64,000 nucleotides of DNA from an uncultured Gammaproteobacteria bacterium (lineage in GTDB: Bacteria > Patescibacteriota > Patescibacteriia > Magasanikbacterales > UBA922), in the NCBI GenBank assembly GCA_964433095.1, contig CAYSPW010000003.1, positions 7,034 to 71,033 of the forward strand. The letters are read 5' to 3'. Made by a program: the position numbers and the translations under genes. The first letter of the stretch is position 1. Each line of letters begins with the position of its first letter. The notes under the pieces are model-generated. The model was not told where the DNA came from. It was given only the letters and a program-made list of their open reading frames with translations, and ran no database searches. Shown here piece after piece: positions 7,613 through 48,405 of the stretch.

Positions 7613-7951
7613 ATGCTTATTCTGTTGCGTTGGTTAATTAACACTATCACCTTATTGATTCTGGCGTTTTATTTGCCCGGGATTGAAGTGAGCGGTTTTT
7701 ACGCCGCCCTGATTACCGCTTTGGTACTCGGTTTGATCAATGCTCTTATCAGGCCGTTGATTATTCTGTTGACTTTGCCCATTAATATTCTCACCTTGGG
7801 TTTGTTTACCTTGGTGCTTAACGCCCTTTTGTTTTGGTTTGTCTCAACGATCGTGGAAGGGTTTGTGGTGGCCGGCTTTTGGCCAGCATTTTGGGGGGCG
7901 TTGATTTTGAGCATGGTGAGCTGGATTATCGGAGCTTTAATTAAGGATTGA
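7613..7951 (+). CDS. DUF360/YvlD-like small membrane protein (phage holin family IV-like)
   Basis: 112 aa, 3-4 TM helices; GxxxALIxALVLGLINALIRP followed by LTLPINILTLGLF resembles the YvlD/DUF360 family. Confidence 0.5.
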   Translation: MLILLRWLINTITLLILAFYLPGIEVSGFYAALITALVLGLINALIRPLIILLTLPINILTLGLFTLVLNALLFWFVSTIVEGFVVAGFWPAFWGALILSMVSWIIGALIKD

Positions 7952-8649
7952 GCATTATGAAAAGAGCAAACAAGATAATTTCGGTCGGGGGATCGATCAT
8001 AGTTCCGCGAACCGGTTTTGATGTAAAATTTTTAAAACGGTTCAGAAGATTGATTCTAGATCAAATAAAGAAAGGTACCCGGTTTGTATTGGTGGTCGGA
8101 GGTGGAGCCACGGCGCGTGAATACCAGCGGGCGGCCGGCGCGGTAACAAAGATGTCAAATGATGAACTGGATTGGATTGGAATTCATTGCACGGTTTTGA
8201 ATGCTCAATTTGTCAAACACATCTTCAAGAATTATGCGTATAAAGAAGTGGTTACCGATCCCAGGTTCAAGGTAAAAACCGATAAATATATTGTTGTGGC
8301 CTCAGGCTGGAAGCCCGGTTGTTCCACAGATAAAGACGCGGTTTTGTTGGCCGACGCGTATGGAGCCAAAGAGTTGATTAACCTGTCAAATATTGAGTAT
8401 GTATATGACAAAGATCCGAATAAGTATAAGCAGGCCAAGAAAATAGAACGGCTGGACTGGAAGACTTTCAGACGGGATATCGTGGGATATAAATGGGAGG
8501 CGGGATCCAATAAGCCTTTTGATCCGATAGCGTCAAAATTAGCCGAACAGATGGATTTGACCGTTAATATTGTTAAAGGAACCAATTTACGACAGGTGGA
8601 AAAAGTACTTACCGGACAAAAATTTAAAGGCACCGTTATCTCGGATTAA
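7948..8649 (+). CDS. pyrH: UMP kinase, archaeal type (amino-acid kinase family)
   Basis: ISVGGSII, VLVVGGGATAREY, GWKPGCSTDKDAVLLADAYGA, NIEYVYDKDPNK match archaeal-type uridylate kinases block for block. Confidence 0.7.
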   Translation: MSIMKRANKIISVGGSIIVPRTGFDVKFLKRFRRLILDQIKKGTRFVLVVGGGATAREYQRAAGAVTKMSNDELDWIGIHCTVLNAQFVKHIFKNYAYKEVVTDPRFKVKTDKYIVVASGWKPGCSTDKDAVLLADAYGAKELINLSNIEYVYDKDPNKYKQAKKIERLDWKTFRRDIVGYKWEAGSNKPFDPIASKLAEQMDLTVNIVKGTNLRQVEKVLTGQKFKGTVISD

Positions 8650-8733: not shown

Positions 8734-9267
8734 ATGAAGCCGAAAATACTTTTACATGTATGTTGCGGGCCATGTTCGATAGCCATATTCAAAGAACTGC
8801 TGCGAAGTTTTGATCTTGTGGCTTATTTTTACAATCCAAACATACATCCGGAAAAAGAGTATGTAAAAAGGAAATCAGAGGTGGTAAAGCTTTGCCGTGA
8901 ATTGAAAATACGTTTTGTGGAAGAAGTATATAATCCAGAAGCCTGGTTTTTGAGAACGGAAAAATATATCAATGAACCGGAAGGTGGTCGGCGCTGCTTG
9001 ATTTGTTTTAAAATCAGGCTGGGACGGGCCGCTAATTATGCGGCGAAAAATGACTTTGATTTTTTCGCCACCAGCTTAACCGGCGGTAGAAATAAAGACG
9101 CCGCGGTAATCAACCCCATCGGCATTGAATGCGGAAAAATACATGGGATTGAGTTTTTCCAAGAGGATTGGAAGAAAAAAGGCCGACAGCAACACGCCGA
9201 CAGGCTGGTGCGAGAAAGGAGGGTTTATCGCCAGAATTATTGCGGCTGTATTTATTCCAAAAAGTAA
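8734..9267 (+). CDS. queH: Epoxyqueuosine reductase QueH (DUF208)
   Basis: LLHVCCGPCS and FYNPNIHP signature motifs; additional conserved Cys pairs (CLICF, CGC) near the middle and C-terminus. Confidence 0.75.
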   Translation: MKPKILLHVCCGPCSIAIFKELLRSFDLVAYFYNPNIHPEKEYVKRKSEVVKLCRELKIRFVEEVYNPEAWFLRTEKYINEPEGGRRCLICFKIRLGRAANYAAKNDFDFFATSLTGGRNKDAAVINPIGIECGKIHGIEFFQEDWKKKGRQQHADRLVRERRVYRQNYCGCIYSKK

Positions 9268-9274
9268 TTTTTGT

Positions 9275-9829
9275 TTATTCTTCAACATCAACGATTTCCA
9301 AATCCAAAATTCTCACTCCGAAATTTTTTGCTTTTGCTCTGTCAGTGAGCCATACATCAATTCTATTTTTTCCGTATCTGGGATTCATTCGATCCCGCAC
9401 GGTTAAAATTTCCTCGCCAAATAATTCCGGTATTCTTACCTTGGTATTGAGCGGCAAAAAATTCGCTGCGATAACGTTTTCTCTGTTGTACTTGCACAAG
9501 TTATACCCGTTGGCGGTAATGCATGGAGTGGAGTCCGTCTGGTCAACGGTACTGGAGTAGGCGGTGGCAATCACTTTTTGATTATGCAGGACGTTAACCT
9601 TGATTTTTGTCTTCTCCTGATGCGGAATAACAACACTAAAAAGCCATAGAAAAATAAGCAAGCCCGAGATAAACAACAATCGGCTTACTGTGGGCAATAA
9701 TATTTTTTCGGTCCAGTGTTGTTTTTTTCTCGCGCTAATTTTTCTTTTTTTGTTTTTTTCCGGCATTGTTTTTTTACGTGTTTTTTTTACATAACCACTC
9801 TTTTTTTTGCTTTTGTTTTTTTTCGCCAT
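9275..9829 (-). CDS. 3D-domain protein (MltA/YuiC-like) with Lys-rich N-terminus and TM anchor
   Basis: TAYSSTVDQTDSTPCITANG, RDRMNPRYGKNRIDVWL and AKAKNFG match the three-Asp 3D domain; highly basic N-terminal 45 aa. Confidence 0.65.
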   Translation of the reverse strand: MAKKNKSKKKSGYVKKTRKKTMPEKNKKRKISARKKQHWTEKILLPTVSRLLFISGLLIFLWLFSVVIPHQEKTKIKVNVLHNQKVIATAYSSTVDQTDSTPCITANGYNLCKYNRENVIAANFLPLNTKVRIPELFGEEILTVRDRMNPRYGKNRIDVWLTDRAKAKNFGVRILDLEIVDVEE

Positions 9830-10059
9830 ATTTGTGGATTATACTATTATTATACTAAATTATTGACACAAAAAAAAGCGCCTTTTTTTATTAAAAAGCG
9901 TCGTAGTTGATGATTGTCCGAAAACCGCGTCATTCACGCGGTATGGATCAGATTTTGCCCACATCGCCCAGCTGTAACCTTCTTCCAGATAACCAAGCTT
10001 AATTACGAAAGCCAGTCCTGTCAGTCACTTCTCTGATAAGTTTTCCAATGGAACCGATA

Positions 10060-10518
10060 TCATAACTCATGATTTAATCTCCTTGGCCGTGTTTGTTGTA
10101 TGGTGATGCGTCTTTGGTTGCGATAATGTTCAATTTGAATAATTTTCACTGATTTGTTTTTAAGCATATCTTGTATTTTTCGTGGCCATTCAATAATGGA
10201 CAAGGTATTTTTTTCTCCCAAATATTCTTCAATGCCCATCGCTTTCAATTCTGCTTGATTTAGCGCGCGATAAGTATCAATATGCGCTATGGCAGTTATG
10301 GTGTTTTTTTCTTTTTTTGGATCGTATACTTGAATCAAGGTAAAGGTGGGGCTGGCCACATGCTCAATGCCGAAATAGTGCAGCACTCCTTTGGCAAAAA
10401 CGGTTTTTCCGGCGCCCAGATCTCCTTCCAACATCAAAATATCACCGCCTTTCAATTGTTCAGCGATTTTTTCCCCCAATTCAAAGGTTTGTTGTTCGGA
10501 AGATGAAATGATTTGCAT
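10060..10518 (-). CDS. tsaE: tRNA t6A37 biosynthesis ATPase TsaE (YjeE)
   Basis: P-loop EGDLGAGKT; size and layout typical of TsaE; directly downstream of glyA on the same strand. Confidence 0.8.
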   Translation of the reverse strand: MQIISSSEQQTFELGEKIAEQLKGGDILMLEGDLGAGKTVFAKGVLHYFGIEHVASPTFTLIQVYDPKKEKNTITAIAHIDTYRALNQAELKAMGIEEYLGEKNTLSIIEWPRKIQDMLKNKSVKIIQIEHYRNQRRITIQQTRPRRLNHEL

Positions 10519-10520
10519 AA

Positions 10521-11768
10521 TTAGTTCAACTCCGGATAAAGCGGAAATTTACCTGTCATTTCTTTAATACCTAATTTGACTTCTGACAGTATTTGTCCGT
10601 TGTTATGATTTTGTATTACCCTGTCAACGAATTCCACTATCAATCGCATTTCTGTTTCTTTCATGCCGCGAGTGGTGACGGCCGGAGTACCGAGTCGGAT
10701 GCCCGAAGGATCCATCGGGCTGCGCGGATCATTGGGAATCATATTCTTATTTAGAGTAATGCCGGCTCGATCTAGAGCTTGTTCGGCCTGCTGTCCGGAT
10801 AGCCCTTTATTGCTTACGTCTAGCAAGAGTAGGTGATTATCTGTACCGCCGAACATTAATTTGTAGTCAAGCTGCTTGAATTTTTCTTCCAACGCTTTGG
10901 CGTTCTTTTTTATTTGGATGGCGTAGTCTATAAAAGCCGGCTCCTGTACTTCTTTGAAAGCGACCGCCTTGGCCGCGATATTATTTTCATGCGGTCCGCC
11001 TTGAAAGCCGGGGAATACCGCTTTGTCAATTTTTTTGGCGAATTGTTCTTTGCACATAATCATGCCGCCTCTGGGTCCGCGCAAGGTTTTATGAGTGGTA
11101 GTGGTCACCACGTCGAAAATAGGAACGGGGTTGTTCATTTGTTCGGCCGCTATCAATCCGGCGATATGTGCGATGTCGGCCATGGTCATGGCACCCACTT
11201 CATCGGCGATTTGTTGTATTTTTTCATAATCTATTTCACGCGAGTAGGCACTGTAGCCGACCAGTATCAATTTTGGCTTGTGTTTTAAGGCTTCATCGCG
11301 CAGATAATCAAGGTCAATCAGACCTTGTCTGTTGGTCATGTAGCGAATGAAGTTGAATATCCGGGCGATATATGTCACCGGATGCCCATGAGTCAGATGT
11401 CCGCCATGAGACAAATCCATGCCTAAGATGGTGTCGCCCGGATCAAGGAGGGCGAAGTAAGCGGCGATATTGGCCGGAGCCCCGGACAAAGGCTGTACGT
11501 TAACGTGTTCGGCAGCGAATATTTTTTTGGCCCTATCAATGGCCAACTGTTCAATATCATCAATGAATTTACAGCCGCCGTAGTATCTTTTGCCTGGATA
11601 ACCTTCCGAGTACTTGTTGGTCAATACCGAACCCAGAGCTTCCAGTACCGCGATTGATACGAAATTTTCCGACGGTATCAATTCCAATCCGGTTTCCTGT
11701 CGCTCCAGCTCGCATTTAATCGCTTCCTTAACTATTGGATCGAACTTTTCCAGCTTTAATTTATTCAT
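10521..11768 (-). CDS. glyA: Serine hydroxymethyltransferase
   Basis: LIPSENFVS, HLTHGH and PLP-lysine region TTTHKTLRGPRGG; full length 415 aa. Confidence 0.95.
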   Translation of the reverse strand: MNKLKLEKFDPIVKEAIKCELERQETGLELIPSENFVSIAVLEALGSVLTNKYSEGYPGKRYYGGCKFIDDIEQLAIDRAKKIFAAEHVNVQPLSGAPANIAAYFALLDPGDTILGMDLSHGGHLTHGHPVTYIARIFNFIRYMTNRQGLIDLDYLRDEALKHKPKLILVGYSAYSREIDYEKIQQIADEVGAMTMADIAHIAGLIAAEQMNNPVPIFDVVTTTTHKTLRGPRGGMIMCKEQFAKKIDKAVFPGFQGGPHENNIAAKAVAFKEVQEPAFIDYAIQIKKNAKALEEKFKQLDYKLMFGGTDNHLLLLDVSNKGLSGQQAEQALDRAGITLNKNMIPNDPRSPMDPSGIRLGTPAVTTRGMKETEMRLIVEFVDRVIQNHNNGQILSEVKLGIKEMTGKFPLYPELN

Positions 11769-11833: not shown

Positions 11834-13474
11834 TCAGATTTTTTTGACCATATACGTGCCTTGTTTTCTATAGCCTAATTTGCGGTAATATTTTCTTACT
11901 CCCACACCGGAAATTACCGCTATTTTACTAAAGCCGGATTTTTTGGCCAGCTGTTCCGCTTTTTCTACCAATTTTTTACCCAAGCCATGGTGTTGCGAAG
12001 CTTTTGTTTGTATTGTACCCAGCTCAACCAGCTGTCCGTATACATGCAGTTCGCGTATAAAAGCGCAATTATTGATTTCAGGCATTAGCTGTACCAATTT
12101 TTTATCTACCGCCTGAGCGGGAATTCTTAGGCGCAAAAAAGCGAAAACCGCCTGTCTTTGATTGTCTTCAAAGCTTAAAAAATATTCTTTTCCTCCCCGG
12201 GTTTGATATGTATAGAAAAATGATTTGATTTTCTTTTTGTCCTTTTTATCCGCTTTGTCTTGATGGCCGATTTCCCGGCATCTCAGGCAGCGACATTTCA
12301 AGCCGCGCTCGTTCATTTCCCTTTTTAATTGTTCGCGTAAATTTGTTACCTTATTTCCGGCTTTAATGTCAGTATCCGGAATATCGCGGACCAGCCTGGA
12401 AATGCGGCAATAGCGCGGTGTGGCTAATTTCATTTCAATTAAAGCTTGGAGTAGTTTTTCATTACCATAAGGTTTGTACATGCCGGATTGATACCAGCGG
12501 TGTAAGCGAGCGCTTTTAATTACCGTACAAGGGTAGATTTTTACCATATCGGGCTTTAAACCCGGATCGGAAAAAAGCAATTTGTACATGGCAACATCAT
12601 GTCGCGAATCAGATCCGGGTAGATCGGGCATGAAATGTAGATCAACTTTAAATCCGGCTTGACGCAAAAGAAAAACCGCTTGTTTGAATCGTTCCACCGT
12701 ATGGCCGCGTTTTATTGTTTTAAGAATGTCGTCATCCGGGGCCTGTAGACCAAGCTCAATTCTGGTACAGCCCTGTAGGCGCATCTGTTTCATTGTTTTG
12801 GGAATTATCGCGTCAGGTCTGGTTTCAAGAGTCAGTCCGACTATTTTATGTTTGGCAAGCTTGTCATTATAATCTTGCTCGGATTCCAGTTCTTGTTTTA
12901 ATTTTTCAATACTGAAATTCTCAAATGGTTTAAGCCGGACGGTGAGTTTTTTTCTGCTGAGATCATTGCAGGCTTTAAAAGATTGCAAAATATACCAAAA
13001 TTGATATTTAAGCGGATAAGCGTTCCATGTGCCTCCTTTGATAATGTATTCAATCTTGTCGGTGGGATGTCCGCTTTTATTTAGCATTTCTATCCTTTTT
13101 TGCATTTGCGCATAAGGATCAAATTTTAAAGCCAAAGCCCGGGCAGCGGCCGGTTCGCTGGCCAGATAGCTTTTCGGCATTTTTTTTTCTTCCGGACAAT
13201 AGACGCAATTTCCCGGACAAGGATGCGGTTCTGTAAGTGAAGTGACAATGGCCACGCCGGAAAGGGTTCTGATGTTTGCTTTACGCATGAACAATTCCAT
13301 TTTTTTATTCCTCTTTAGTCTTTTCTTTTTTATTAAATTATGATAGGCTTTTAAAAGATTACGATTGGAAATTTGCGGTATTTTAAGGCGGGCGCAGACT
13401 TTTCTTCTGGTGTCGTCAAATTCAGCCTTGGTTTTGGGCCTTTTAGATTTGATTTCCAGTAGTATTTTTTCCAA
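11834..13474 (-). CDS. elp3: ELP3-like radical SAM / GNAT tRNA uridine-34 acetyltransferase homolog
   Basis: Radical-SAM CxxxCxxC (HPCPGNCVYCPEE) in the N-terminal half; C-terminal GNAT acetyltransferase block (QHHGLGKKLVEKAEQLAKKSGFSKIAVISGVGVRKYYRKLGY); 546 aa, the size of archaeal/eukaryotic Elp3. Confidence 0.75.
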   Translation of the reverse strand: MEKILLEIKSKRPKTKAEFDDTRRKVCARLKIPQISNRNLLKAYHNLIKKKRLKRNKKMELFMRKANIRTLSGVAIVTSLTEPHPCPGNCVYCPEEKKMPKSYLASEPAAARALALKFDPYAQMQKRIEMLNKSGHPTDKIEYIIKGGTWNAYPLKYQFWYILQSFKACNDLSRKKLTVRLKPFENFSIEKLKQELESEQDYNDKLAKHKIVGLTLETRPDAIIPKTMKQMRLQGCTRIELGLQAPDDDILKTIKRGHTVERFKQAVFLLRQAGFKVDLHFMPDLPGSDSRHDVAMYKLLFSDPGLKPDMVKIYPCTVIKSARLHRWYQSGMYKPYGNEKLLQALIEMKLATPRYCRISRLVRDIPDTDIKAGNKVTNLREQLKREMNERGLKCRCLRCREIGHQDKADKKDKKKIKSFFYTYQTRGGKEYFLSFEDNQRQAVFAFLRLRIPAQAVDKKLVQLMPEINNCAFIRELHVYGQLVELGTIQTKASQHHGLGKKLVEKAEQLAKKSGFSKIAVISGVGVRKYYRKLGYRKQGTYMVKKI

Positions 13475-13489
13475 GCCAATTAAATTAAT

Positions 13490-14191
13490 ATGATTGATAG
13501 TAAAAAATTAATTGAACAAAACAAACAAGTTTACGATAAAATTGCCCTGCCATTTGCTCAAACTCGCAAGTTCGTTTGGGCCGATTTAAAACCCTTGGCC
13601 AAGTATACCAAAGACGGATACAAAGTATTAGATCTGGGCTGTGGCAGTGGTAGACTGTATCAGCTTTTTCAAGATTTGTCCATAAAATATATCGGAGTGG
13701 ACCAGAGTAAAAAGCAGCTGCAAAATGCCGAAAAAAAATATCCGGCCGCTAAATTAATTATATCAGAGATGAGGAATTTGCCATTTGCGGACAATGAATT
13801 TAATGTAATTTACTGTATTGCCACTTTTCATCACCTGCCAAGTAAAGAGAGTAGGTTGGAAGCTTTAGCCGAAATGAAGCGTGTTCTAAAACTTGGCGGC
13901 AGAGTAATTTTTACTAATTGGAATCTATTTTCCAAAAGTGCCGCAAAAACGGTTGAAAAAGGAAAGTGGAAAATAAAACGGGGAAGCGAGGCTGACTTTT
14001 TCGTGCCCTGGATGTCTTCAGATGGTAAAGTTTTGGGAGATAGATACTATTATGGATACAGACCGCGGGAGTTGAAAGAATTATTTCAATCAGCGGGTTT
14101 TTTTATGGAAGAGCACTATTATAGTAGAAAAGGGGAGAAGAGTAGCGTGGAAAAAGGACACAATATTGTGAGTGTCGTCAAAAAAATATAA
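13490..14191 (+). CDS. Trm9/ALKBH8-like SAM-dependent tRNA methyltransferase (Methyltransf_11)
   Basis: VYDKIALPFAQTRKFVW resembles Trm9 VY.EIA.HFS.TRYKPWP; motif I VLDLGCGSGR; Trm9-like DFFVPW block; divergent from elp3 with a 15-bp gap. Confidence 0.6.
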   Translation: MIDSKKLIEQNKQVYDKIALPFAQTRKFVWADLKPLAKYTKDGYKVLDLGCGSGRLYQLFQDLSIKYIGVDQSKKQLQNAEKKYPAAKLIISEMRNLPFADNEFNVIYCIATFHHLPSKESRLEALAEMKRVLKLGGRVIFTNWNLFSKSAAKTVEKGKWKIKRGSEADFFVPWMSSDGKVLGDRYYYGYRPRELKELFQSAGFFMEEHYYSRKGEKSSVEKGHNIVSVVKKI

Positions 14192-17340: not shown

Positions 17341-17991
17341 TTATTCTGTCAGTATGTCTTTCAAATCACCTGTATTTTCGCGCCATTTTTCACCATCAAA
17401 CCATTCCAGGCCTTTGAATTGCAATTTATATTTATCTCCCGGTCGTTGCGCCGAACCGAGATAAAAATATTTTTTATGTTTATCCATGGCATGTATTATC
17501 GCCTTCAACATCATTCCCATGCCCAAGTTCTTTATTTCCCCACTAAGATCCGTTCGGTAAAAAGGATAACAATAGTGAATTATTTTATCGGTTTCAACCG
17601 AAATGCAATAACCAACTATTTTATCATCAAGCCGGTATTCAAGCAGCATGTTAAAATTGTGATCTCGGGTGAGAATTTCTCTTGCCTTGTTGGCGCTGAA
17701 TGTTCCTTTGCCGAATTTGGATTGGTAAAAATCTTTGGCCATTTTCGCTATTTTCCAAGAGTAATCGGTTAAAGGTACGGATTTGGCGATAAGAGATAAT
17801 TGCGCGGTTTTTTTTAAAACCCTTCTGTTTTCACTGCTTGGCACAAATTCGGATAAATCAATTCTCAAGGCTCTGGTTCGATTCATCTCTCCTTTGGCCA
17901 ATCTGGTAAAAACATAACCTTTGGCGTACAGCCTATTAACATTTTGATCGGAAAAGTCTATTATATTTTTTTTATCCCAGCTCAAATACAT
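17341..17991 (-). CDS. Arginyl/leucyl-tRNA--protein transferase (ATE1/Bpt)-family protein
   Basis: N-terminal LYAKGYVFTR...RIDLSEFVPSSENRRVLKK resembles ATE_N (R.D...F.PS.SQRRV.KK); C-terminal FYLGSAQRPGDKYKLQFKGLEWFDGEKW resembles ATE_C (YLGYYI...YK..F.P.E..W); canonical ATE_N cysteines absent. Confidence 0.4.
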   Translation of the reverse strand: MYLSWDKKNIIDFSDQNVNRLYAKGYVFTRLAKGEMNRTRALRIDLSEFVPSSENRRVLKKTAQLSLIAKSVPLTDYSWKIAKMAKDFYQSKFGKGTFSANKAREILTRDHNFNMLLEYRLDDKIVGYCISVETDKIIHYCYPFYRTDLSGEIKNLGMGMMLKAIIHAMDKHKKYFYLGSAQRPGDKYKLQFKGLEWFDGEKWRENTGDLKDILTE

Positions 17992-46957: not shown

Positions 46958-47245
46958 ATGTCATATCAAGATGATAGACCAATGTTTCAGGTGGATATTG
47001 AATGCGGACAGTGTGGAAAAAAGATTTCCGAATTGCCGTTTGAGCCTTCCGGTGATAGACCGGTATACTGCTCGGATTGCCTGAAAGAGAGACGTGGTAA
47101 TCGCGACAACAGAGGAGAACGCAGGATGTTTACGGTTGATATTAATTGCGCGGATTGTGGTGCTCATATTTCACAGCTGCCGTTTGAACCACGTGGAGAC
47201 AGCCCTATTTATTGCTTTGAGTGCAACAAGAAAAGAAGAGGCTAA
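46958..47245 (+). CDS. Tandem CxxC zinc-ribbon protein (two roughly 45-aa repeats)
   Basis: Internal repeat MFQVDIECGQCGKKISELPFEPSGDRPVYCSDCLKERRG / MFTVDINCADCGAHISQLPFEPRGDSPIYCFECNKKRRG; each repeat has CxxC...YCxxC. Confidence 0.5.
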   Translation: MSYQDDRPMFQVDIECGQCGKKISELPFEPSGDRPVYCSDCLKERRGNRDNRGERRMFTVDINCADCGAHISQLPFEPRGDSPIYCFECNKKRRG

Positions 47246-47331: not shown

Positions 47332-48405
47332 ATGGCGCAAAAAAAAGAAAAAGTACTGGTAGCTCTCTCCGGCGGGGTTGATTCCTCGGTGGCAGCTTTT
47401 TTGTTGCTGCGGACCGGTTATCAGGTTAGTGCCGCCTTTATGGTTAATTATGAAGACAAAGCCGGTTGTTGGCGTCGGGATTACCGCGACGCTGTCCGGG
47501 TGGCGGCCAAACTGGGAATAGCAATCGTTAAATTTGATTTTAAAGAACAATACAAGCGATTTGTGCTTGATTATATGTATAATCAGTATGAAAAGGGAAA
47601 TACTCCCAATCCGGACGTGTTGTGTAATAAATTTATCAAATTCGGGGTGTGGTTGGAAAAGGCGCGCGAGCTTGGTTTTAATAAATTAAGCACCGGACAT
47701 TACGCCATAAATAATTTTGATAAAAATAGTAATTCATGGCAGCTGCAGATCGGCAAGGATAAGGAAAAGGATCAGACATATTTTTTACATCAATTGTCTC
47801 AACAGCAGCTCGCGCGTTCTTTATTTCCGATCGGACAATACAATAAAAAACAGGTTCGACAAATAGCCGCGGAAAACAATTTGCCCACCGCGGAAAAAAA
47901 AGAAAGCATGGGAATTTGTTTTGTGGGTAAGGTGTCAATGAAGAAGTTTTTATTGAAAAGGATTCTGCCAAAGCCGGGAAAAATTGTCTCCACCGATGGT
48001 AAGAAACTGGGCGAGCATATCGGACTTCCTTTTTATACGATAGGACAGCGTCATTTTGGCGTATCCGGTCTTGATGCCGACTCGGACGACAAGCCTTTGT
48101 ATGTTGTTGAAAAAAGAAAACGGAGCAACGAGCTTGTTGTCGGCCATGCTGATGATCCCAAGTTGTTTAAGAAGAAAATTGAAGTAGGCAAAGTAAACTG
48201 GATATCTGGACAGGAACCGGAATTTCCCGTAAAATGCGAGGTGAGACTGCGCCATGGTCAAAGTTTGCAAAAATGCGAGATCAGAAAAAATAAAGAAAAA
48301 ATATTGGTGGAATTTGATAAAACGCAAAAAGCGATCGCGCCAGGGCAGTTTGCGGTTTTTTACTTGGAACGGCAATGTGTGGGGGGAGGAACCATTCTGC
48401 CTTGA
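47332..48405 (+). CDS. mnmA: tRNA-specific 2-thiouridylase MnmA
   Basis: PP-loop VALSGGVDSSVAA; catalytic Cys regions (DVLCNKFIKFG, GICFVG). Confidence 0.9.
   Translation: MAQKKEKVLVALSGGVDSSVAAFLLLRTGYQVSAAFMVNYEDKAGCWRRDYRDAVRVAAKLGIAIVKFDFKEQYKRFVLDYMYNQYEKGNTPNPDVLCNKFIKFGVWLEKARELGFNKLSTGHYAINNFDKNSNSWQLQIGKDKEKDQTYFLHQLSQQQLARSLFPIGQYNKKQVRQIAAENNLPTAEKKESMGICFVGKVSMKKFLLKRILPKPGKIVSTDGKKLGEHIGLPFYTIGQRHFGVSGLDADSDDKPLYVVEKRKRSNELVVGHADDPKLFKKKIEVGKVNWISGQEPEFPVKCEVRLRHGQSLQKCEIRKNKEKILVEFDKTQKAIAPGQFAVFYLERQCVGGGTILP

Follow-up and report, generated by a model that had tools for sequence, protein, structure and literature searches.

A head-to-head Elp3 and Trm9-like gene pair in a CPR bacterium: a predicted Elongator-type module for tRNA wobble-uridine modification

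Described wobble-uridine pathways and the new locus

In eukaryotes, Elongator (Elp1-6) and Trm9-Trm112 or ALKBH8 convert U34 of tRNA to cm5U and then to mcm5U, and the catalytic residues of the yeast methyltransferase (ScTrm9) have been defined through mutagenesis (PMC4678810). In archaea, Elp3 operates without Elp1, 2 and 4-6 together with a short single-domain Trm9 and Trm112; HvoTrm9 (HVO_1032) of Haloferax volcanii is required for mcm5U (PMC6144793), and in Sulfolobus solfataricus the genes for Elp3 and Trm9 lie in a cluster (PMC2584109). In reviews, cm5U and mcm5U are assigned to archaea and eukaryotes alone (PMC7694415), and a specialist review of 2020 confines bacterial Elp3 to Dehalococcoides, with no evidence on the product (PMC7663514). 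No Trm9 partner is described for the Dehalococcoides mccartyi enzyme (DmcElp3) in three papers on Elp3 (PMC6367351, PMC7663514, PMC13315578). The MnmE/MnmG route (with MnmC/MnmL/MnmM) and the CmoA/CmoB/CmoM route serve the same purpose, i.e. wobble-U decoding, through unrelated enzymes and side chains, although CmoM likewise methyl-esterifies a carboxylate of the U34 side chain. To our knowledge, DmcElp3 is the only characterised bacterial Elp3, and the product of Elp3 is the only known substrate of Trm9-type enzymes. Searches of the literature on CPR/Patescibacteria/DPANN for Elp3 or Trm9, and on Patescibacteria for MnmE/MnmG, returned nothing relevant.

The gene pair described here lies in a 64-kb window (the whole stretch of DNA that was analysed) with bacterial ribosomal, Mur/MraY and MnmA genes, the host being a Magasanikbacteria-like CPR bacterium. 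The features of interest are:

11834..13474, (-) strand: Elp3 homolog, 546 aa, TTG start
13475..13489, no strand: junction between the divergent start codons, 15 bp, sequence gccaattaaattaat
13490..14191, (+) strand: Trm9-like class I SAM methyltransferase, 233 aa, ATG start
47332..48405, (+) strand: MnmA, tRNA U34 2-thiouridylase (Pfam tRNA_Me_trans 239.6 bits; M and C domains also matched)

As the original prediction had it, the two open reading frames of the pair are divergent, with 15 bp between their start codons. Promoters and Shine-Dalgarno sites would have to overlap the adjoining coding sequence, and a promoter scan found 17 promoter-like sites at the junction versus 13.0 +/- 3.5 in shuffles, i.e. 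no enrichment; the counterparts of this junction in relatives measure ~1-10 bp. A tRNA scan and an Rfam scan of the window gave zero matches. Besides the pair, TsaE and QueH represent other tRNA-modification genes of the window, and the MnmA gene is found 33 kb from the pair, with no physical linkage to it.

The reading preferred here, to which a probability of about 70% is assigned, is that of an Elongator-type two-gene tRNA wobble-uridine module in a CPR bacterium, in which Elp3 would generate cm5U34 and the methyltransferase would convert it to mcm5U34, thiolation by MnmA being proposed less firmly. With the archaeal system the pair shares an Elp3 devoid of the other Elp subunits, a short Trm9 of one domain in which the active-site residues agree, and gene clustering (as in S. 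solfataricus, PMC2584109, and in DPANN and a Crenarchaeote in the present survey). However, the host is bacterial, a search around the pair found no Trm112 gene, the Trm112 patch is partly charged, the Elp3 of CPR carries a conserved N-terminal module of its own (~65 aa), and thiolation would rely on the bacterial MnmA, in common with the MnmE/MnmG route, rather than on Ncs6/Tuc1. With the eukaryotic system the pair shares the predicted chemistry, the domain layout of Elp3 and the catalytic residues of Trm9 (PMC4678810), but accessory Elp subunits and an AlkB/RRM fusion are missing, Trm112 is not evident and the genes are adjacent and divergent; furthermore, the Elp3 contains the Zn-binding CxCxxC linker, which is conserved in bacterial and archaeal Elp3 and missing in eukaryotes (PMC6367351). 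DmcElp3 is, similarly, a bacterial stand-alone enzyme, but its N-terminus is not extended and its binding of tRNA is weak (PMC6367351, PMC7663514), whereas the Elp3 of the window has a long module. Both enzymes, and the clustering of their genes, have precedents in archaea; the pair is, therefore, a new representative, in bacteria, of an established pathway and not a system of a new kind.

The Trm9-like methyltransferase

The strings VYDKIALPFAQTRKFVW and DFFVPW of the methyltransferase, from which its likeness to Trm9 had been proposed, are present and align with the matching blocks of Yarrowia Trm9. The latter is also the best match among solved structures in a phmmer search (5cm2_Z, E 1.5e-13, residues 23-210), and the Trm9-like call holds while assignments to CmoM or UbiE fail. 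The protein matches Methyltransf_11 with 80.8 bits, and LDLGCGSG and D71 (ScTrm9 D72) are invariant in its family. On the basis of a direct alignment to YlTrm9, residues R26, D71, H114, H115, W144, W174, R185 and Y187 are identical to ScTrm9 R29, D72, H115, H116, W145, W168, R241 and Y243, respectively. All eight directly mapped active-site residues are, therefore, kept, namely seven whose Ala mutants are inactive or impaired in yeast plus ScTrm9 H115; N225 is only a tentative counterpart of ScTrm9 N271, which falls outside the direct alignment. ScTrm9 K31, R122, E148 and Q149, the mutants of which stay wild-type, are not conserved. R26 and W144 do not vary within the family, and H114, H115 and R185 are each retained by at least 90% of the members, while the position of Y187 is occupied by V, I, C or T in many of them and that of W174 by F or Y.

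The AF2 model (pLDDT 95.2) has a Rossmann-like topology, and fold searches do not single out Trm9, though 5cm2_Z tops the Foldseek list. When the family profile is compared with the PDB, Trm9 is the best single-domain match by only a few bits, since the shared SAM core dominates the scores. With Yarrowia Trm9 as the query, the Elp3-linked family aligns over the full length (E 1e-25 to 1e-10), and generic methyltransferases match in the SAM core only (E > 1e-6). As far as sequence comparison can tell, the enzyme is Trm9-like and not UbiE-, SmtA- or CmoM-like, and it is predicted to be a cm5U34 carboxyl methyltransferase with mcm5U34 as its product.

Nonetheless, the methyltransferase might be coupled to Elp3 and not make mcm5U, acting instead on another Elp3-dependent intermediate or on a different atom of the U34 nucleotide or its side chain, to give an undescribed xm5U derivative. 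The variation at Y187 and W174 implies a pocket not identical to that of eukaryotic Trm9, conserved synteny indicates functional coupling rather than chemistry, and in Haloferax deletion of trm9 does not lead to a build-up of cm5U, and unidentified U34 species occur there (PMC6144793). However, the positions of ScTrm9 R29, H115, H116, W145 and R241, the proposed holders of the cm5U carboxylate and uracil, are invariant or nearly so, and the archaeal ortholog with the same residues makes mcm5U (PMC6144793), which leaves a different product as the less likely outcome by far, yet the one among the alternatives that deserves most attention.

If mcm5U34 is the product, as preferred here, the methyltransferase probably works without Trm112, which is the least certain part of the explanation. 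Motif scans of the window and of 1.35 Mb of related loci detected no Trm112-like open reading frame, and neighbourhood clustering of related loci revealed no recurrent small neighbour of the Trm112 type. Of the six hydrophobic residues by which YlTrm9 contacts Trm112, two (V59 and F78) are replaced by K/R and D/E, respectively, throughout the methyltransferase family. A LysW-like mini-ORF located nearby was considered as a surrogate for Trm112 and rejected, as it accompanies the PALP gene in close Magasanikbacteria only and is absent at all other loci of the pair.

Conservation and distribution of the pair

Relatives of the methyltransferase were collected from GTDB species representatives with a generic SAM-motif pattern, and the resulting counts represent a sample rather than a census. 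Among the matches listed, Elp3 is adjacent in 31 of the 34 evaluable close relatives, 29 of these 31 loci having the same divergent layout, and in 43 of 80 loci overall. The conservation of the pair thus reaches from close relatives, where it was expected if the original prediction was correct, to far more distant organisms: the pair was seen, again among the matches listed, in Anaerolineales, Fermentibacteria, a Crenarchaeote, DPANN archaea and many lineages of CPR, and the divergent arrangement is kept in relatives at 56%, 45% and 36% identity. Complete or near-complete genomes with the pair include AP024679.1 (Dojkabacteria), OZ246405.1 and the 952-kb contig Ga0233431_1000003. When sampling started from Elp3, the methyltransferase was found to adjoin it in four of four loci, and the distances of the two proteins co-vary (Mantel r = 0.84). 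It is, therefore, proposed that Elp3 and the methyltransferase are inherited together, head-to-head, across CPR, DPANN and a few other lineages. The linkage is not universal, as an Aenigmarchaeota homolog (P0076) has no neighbouring Elp3; two methyltransferase loci of Dehalococcoidia (L059 and L070) are of the generic type and lack Elp3.

The homologs of Elp3 number thousands, the best matches listed being of the CPR type and already named Elp3 by NCBI. Together with the four of four Elp3-first samples, this makes the earlier statement that homologs of Elp3 are scarce in bacteria and mostly orphan wrong for CPR. Since Elp3 is widespread in CPR with the methyltransferase adjacent in these samples, the pair of the window is a typical member of the module and no exception; since numerous ultra-small bacteria and archaea share the pairing, the extension of the known pathway into bacteria is genuine but not peculiar to this locus.

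The same data bear on the possibility that the methyltransferase is a generic class I enzyme acting on a small molecule or another substrate (of the UbiE/MenG, SmtA/CmoM or BioC type), placed beside Elp3 by chance. Annotation would seem to favour it: Pfam and NCBIfam return only Methyltransf_11/25/31 and sub-threshold UbiE, BioC and DVU_1556 matches, the homologs are labelled ‘class I SAM-dependent methyltransferase’ by NCBI, the JGI names include UbiE in some cases (and TRM9 in several), and Trm9 does not stand out in fold searches. However, every NCBIfam match is far under its cutoff; in particular, the best UbiE model gives 51 bits versus a cutoff of 216 and TIGR01934 gives 49.5 versus 158, at variance with a UbiE/MenG identity. 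With Escherichia coli CmoM, BLASTP aligns only a 60-residue stretch of the SAM core (E 0.009), and the hhalign alignment spans columns 14-150 only, the HH motif and a C-terminal match being missing, so that CmoM/SmtA was also rejected. Furthermore, Elp3 adjacency recurs in different phyla and in both bacteria and archaea, and it goes with the Trm9 catalytic signature (38/10/5/27 in the 80 loci among the matches listed, Fisher p = 1.7e-8), and none of the 27 signature-negative generic methyltransferases among those matches has Elp3 nearby. The generic reading is, thus, largely refuted and must be considered very improbable.

The Elp3 protein and the proposed pathway

The product of 11834..13474 matches TIGR01211 with 541.1 bits, well above the curated cutoff of 350 and over the full length (residues 7-546 on model positions 5-522 of 522), while TIGR01212 (MnmL/YtqA) gives 77.6 versus a cutoff of 180 and covers the radical-SAM domain only. 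Pfam recognizes Radical_SAM, Radical_SAM_C and a C-terminal Acetyltransf_1 (GNAT) domain at residues 440-535. The protein is built of a basic and helical N-terminal module of ~65 aa, a radical-SAM domain, the Zn-binding linker and a C-terminal GNAT/KAT domain. The N-terminal module is conserved in CPR Elp3 and missing in that of their DPANN neighbours. Start at the TTG codon, giving 546 aa, is supported because homologs align from residue 1; the NCBI gene call on the same contig is shorter (484 aa, P0093). Among solved structures, the best agreement is with MinElp3 (6iaz, E 1.5e-113) and DmcElp3 (5l7j, E 5.9e-106), followed by eukaryotic Elp3 (~1e-90).

In the alignment, the Fe-S cysteines C86/C90/C93 of the CPGNCVYC motif correspond to MinElp3 C90/C95/C98, with a Cx3Cx2C spacing that is one residue longer in MinElp3, and C394/C396/C399 of the Zn-binding linker to C384/C386/C389. 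K140, K276, E475, H477 and Y529 correspond to MinElp3 K150, K266, Q461, H463 and Y517, respectively, the Glu at 475 being shared with DmcElp3 (E386). MinElp3 K150, K266, Q461 and Y517 are acetyl-CoA-site residues required for tRNA-induced hydrolysis. The identification of Elp3 from the CPGNCVYC motif and the C-terminal GNAT domain is thereby borne out, with its KAT residues present: the alignments and profiles identify a bona fide Elp3 with intact radical-SAM and KAT residues, which is predicted to be a tRNA U34 C5-carboxymethylase forming cm5U34. That this Elp3 has instead a non-tRNA role (as an acetyltransferase of proteins or other targets, or in another radical-SAM reaction), the pair acting on a different target, echoes past proposals of Elp3 as a histone or protein acetyltransferase and the weak in vitro activity of DmcElp3 (PMC7663514), but can practically be set aside given that current evidence has Elp3 as a true tRNA modifier in bacteria, archaea and eukaryotes, whose hydrolysis of acetyl-CoA is set off only by tRNA (PMC6367351, PMC13315578), that the protein of the window keeps its N-terminal module for tRNA binding as well as every catalytic residue tested and that the neighbours include TsaE, QueH and the Trm9-like gene.

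In the proposed pathway to mcm5U34, the stand-alone Elp3 would, by homology, bind U34-containing tRNAs with the N-terminal module and the cleft at its centre; the [4Fe-4S] cluster would split SAM to yield the 5'-deoxyadenosyl radical, and the KAT domain would provide the two-carbon unit derived from acetyl-CoA, to be joined to C5 of U34. The methyltransferase would then bind SAM and hold the carboxylate of cm5U by R26, H115, R185, Y187 and, probably, Y15, with W144 stacking on the base, so that the carboxylate may be methyl-esterified. As a third and less firmly proposed step, MnmA would thiolate C2 on Lys, Glu and Gln tRNAs, leading from mcm5U to the eukaryote-like mcm5s2U34, a role that is probable for this enzyme. 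The enzyme set for mcm5s2U34 would, thus, be mixed archaeal/eukaryotic and bacterial.

The conserved Trm9-type partner argues strongly, at the genomic level, that Elongator-type wobble modifications are really made in a large bacterial radiation, and it provides a specific predicted function for a gene annotated by NCBI only as a class I SAM-dependent methyltransferase. For biochemical work, the pair provides both enzymes in a small, single-subunit and probably Trm112-free form, and it lengthens the list of translation-related traits common to CPR bacteria, DPANN archaea and eukaryotes. A bolder and decidedly speculative extension, which we would not expect to hold in full, is that CPR and habitat-sharing DPANN use a compact, Trm112-independent Elp3-Trm9 module with MnmA to make mcm5(s2)U34, that this replaces MnmE/MnmG as their main or sole xm5U34 pathway, and that the module moved between domains as a head-to-head unit. 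If this were true, mcm5U would join the bacterial modification repertoire and the methyltransferase would be the first Trm9 active without Trm112.

Finally, the PLP enzyme (PALP, 115.8 bits in Pfam) next to the methyltransferase and the LysW-like zinc ribbon (54 aa; 33.1 bits versus a Pfam cutoff of 27) are located where they had been noted, but do not belong to the module of the pair. They form a separate unit, co-occurring in close Magasanikbacteria relatives only, and another gene can intervene between them and the methyltransferase.

The Elp3 gene and its divergent methyltransferase

The two genes of the pair, whose start codons are 15 bp apart, occupy precisely the positions assigned to them in the original prediction; they are listed here with the two genes that follow the methyltransferase.

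11834..13474, minus strand: Elp3 protein, 546 aa, TTG start
13490..14191, plus strand: Trm9-like methyltransferase, 233 aa
14196..15077, minus strand: PLP (PALP-fold) enzyme, 293 aa
15146..15310, plus strand: LysW-like zinc ribbon, 54 aa

The surrounding genes are bacterial (MurC/Mpl-like ligase, MraY-like transferase, SHMT, TsaE and QueH) and the close homologs of both proteins bear Magasanikbacteria or Patescibacteria names, so that the host is a CPR bacterium. A tRNA scan and an Rfam scan of the window returned no tRNA genes and no Rfam matches.

The Elp3 protein matches the NCBIfam model TIGR01211 (ELP3) end-to-end (541 bits; curated cutoff 350), contains the Pfam domains Radical_SAM, Radical_SAM_C and GNAT and, among solved structures, matches archaeal MinElp3 (E 1.5e-113), DmcElp3 of the bacterium Dehalococcoides mccartyi (5.9e-106) and the eukaryotic Elp3 proteins (approx. 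1e-90). Mapping onto the residues whose functional importance was established by Lin et al. 2019 (PMC6367351) located the Fe-S cysteines (C86/C90/C93), the Zn cysteines (C394/C396/C399) and the acetyl-CoA-site residues K140, K276, E475 (the counterpart of E386 in DmcElp3), H477 and Y529; with the acetyl-CoA site present, the loss of KAT residues, named beforehand as an objection to Elp3 identity, does not apply. In contrast to DmcElp3, the protein begins with a long N-terminal module (approximately 65 residues), which is kept among CPR Elp3 proteins, the TIGR01211 alignment beginning at residue 7. The NCBI gene call on the same contig (P0093, 484 aa) begins some 62 codons past the TTG at 13474 and thus leaves out this module (13289..13474, minus strand), which homologs share and TIGR01211 spans. 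If the long start is used, only 15 bp (approx. 1–10 bp in relatives) remain for all 5′ signals of both divergent genes.

In curated libraries, the methyltransferase gives generic class I matches alone, all NCBIfam scores being far under cutoff. Its top sequence match among solved structures, over residues 23–210, is 5cm2_Z (E 1.5e-13), which is Yarrowia lipolytica Trm9 from the Trm9-Trm112 complex; the second-ranked structure is a thousand-fold weaker match, limited to the SAM core. With Yarrowia Trm9 as the query, Elp3-linked proteins align over the full length (E 1e-25 to 1e-10), whereas generic methyltransferases match in the SAM core alone. The Trm9 active site has been defined by mutagenesis in yeast (Létoquart et al. 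2015, PMC4678810), and all eight directly mapped residues of yeast Trm9 (ScTrm9), namely seven with inactivating or impairing Ala mutants and H115, are identical: R29, D72, H115, H116, W145, W168, R241 and Y243 correspond to R26, D71, H114, H115, W144, W174, R185 and Y187, respectively. Conversely, none of the four residues whose mutants are wild-type (K31, R122, E148, Q149) is kept. Y15 corresponds to ScTrm9 Y18 by spacing, and N225 is probably the counterpart of N271. Methyl-esterification of a U34 side chain is also carried out by E. coli CmoM/SmtA; similarity to that enzyme is confined to the SAM core and does not include the HH motif, and this identity was rejected.

Conservation of the pair

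The divergent layout is found again in homologs at 56%, 45% and 36% identity. GTDB was scanned at one genome per species with a generic SAM-motif pattern, the best 80 loci among the matches listed were retained as a sample, and Elp3 was sought in them by tblastn. Elp3 adjoins the methyltransferase in 31 of the 35 top-scoring loci, being upstream and divergent in 29 of these; one of the other four is too short for judgement and three are without Elp3. Overall, 43 of the 80 loci contain Elp3. According to record titles, the CPR carriers include Kuenen-, Portnoy-, Kerfeld-, Komeili-, Paceibacter-, Peri- and Gracili- lineages, WWE3 and Dojkabacteria, besides records labelled Saccharibacteria; beyond CPR, the pair occurs in Woese-, Pace- and Nanoarchaeota, a Crenarchaeote, Anaerolineales and Fermentibacteria. 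Four loci (L019, L025, L032, L034) are titled ‘uncultured Gammaproteobacteria bacterium’ in GTDB yet have a CPR-type Elp3/Trm9/SHMT neighbourhood, and the taxonomy given for these third-party assemblies seems unreliable.

A Trm9 signature of six residues (R26, D71, H114, W144, an aromatic residue at 174, and R185) is associated with Elp3 adjacency across the 80 loci (Fisher p = 1.7e-8): 38 loci have both, 10 the signature alone, 5 Elp3 alone and 27 neither, and each of the 5 deviates from the signature at one position. In reverse sampling, four long contigs were chosen for their Elp3 homologs, and in all four the methyltransferase was adjacent. Elp3 and methyltransferase distances over 43 loci are correlated (Mantel r = 0.84, reached in 0 of 2000 permutations), which fits joint inheritance, as it would any two vertically inherited genes.

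The pair is real and the core of the original prediction correct; its emphasis on rarity does not hold for CPR bacteria. The window pair is typical of a module that is widespread, and is a bacterial addition to a known pathway. In Sulfolobus solfataricus, Elp3 and Trm9 genes were already noted to cluster (PMC2584109), and mcm5U production has been shown for HvoTrm9-Trm112 (PMC6144793). A 2020 specialist review placed bacterial Elp3 in Dehalococcoides only, with evidence for xcm5U34 lacking (PMC7663514), neither cm5U nor mcm5U is assigned to Bacteria in a modification compendium (PMC7694415), and a 2026 paper mentions ‘numerous bacteria’ that have Elp3 (PMC13315578). Our literature search found no paper tying Elp3 or Trm9 to CPR lineages; in databases, NCBI already calls CPR proteins Elp3 and JGI tags some of the methyltransferases TRM9.

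Proposed pathway and the Trm112 question

In the best-supported reading, Elp3 would make cm5U34, which the Trm9-like enzyme would methyl-esterify to mcm5U34; these two steps are based on homology, residue conservation and synteny. As a third step, we infer that MnmA (47332..48405, plus strand) may then thiolate a subset of tRNAs to mcm5s2U34. Directly before the MnmA gene lies that of a 95-aa protein (46958..47245, plus strand) that carries a pair of treble-clef zinc fingers (83 bits to PF23477).

To our knowledge, every characterised Trm9 enzyme depends on Trm112. When all neighbouring ORFs were clustered, no recurrent Trm112-like protein emerged, and motif scans found no such ORF in the window or in 1.35 Mb of loci. 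Among the hydrophobic Trm112-contact residues of Yarrowia Trm9, two of six are charged in the methyltransferase family and a third is often polar. We lean towards a methyltransferase that would stand alone, without Trm112.

Other genes nearby

The PLP enzyme, distantly threonine-synthase-like (32 bits to 2zsj), and the LysW-like ORF form a divergent pair of their own inside a cell-wall gene cluster. They co-occur in close Magasanikbacteria relatives only, are missing from all other pair-bearing lineages and are separated from the methyltransferase by a Band_7 gene in one locus (L005), and were thus rejected as module members. The mini-ORF ends in a conserved ‘...DEGK’, unlike LysW with its C-terminal Glu.

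Downstream of Elp3 and co-directional with it are SHMT (10521..11768) and TsaE (10060..10518), with QueH (8734..9267) close by, so that several anticodon-loop modification genes cluster at 8734..11768, as also in L002, L091 and L094. In 11 loci of various CPR lineages, no more than 10 kb separates SHMT from Elp3; no functional tie to Elp3 chemistry is evident. The UMP kinase (7948..8649, plus strand) is a further gene of archaeal type in the bacterium, scoring 188 bits with TIGR02076 pyrH_arch (cutoff 158) and 50.6 bits with the bacterial pyrH model (cutoff 243.9).

Paceibacteria-type loci have, after the pair, a SLOG-cluster4 protein (approx. 190 aa) and then an 84–89-aa protein similar to EF-Tu domain 2 and to the C-terminal barrel of Peptidase_U32 (sub-threshold in Pfam). 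These proteins recur in 9–13 loci, lying downstream of the methyltransferase in L012, L014, L015, L018, L021, L031, L035, L037, L040 and L043, and might belong, with the pair, to a larger translation-related cluster specific to this lineage. Finally, a 216-aa protein (17341..17991, minus strand) encoded between a Mur ligase and an MraY-like gene has an arginyl-tRNA-protein-transferase C-terminal (ATE_C) domain and may be a cell-wall peptide transferase that depends on aminoacyl-tRNA; the arrangement is kept in relatives, as unannotated ORFs of 220–226 aa in L002, L091 and L093.
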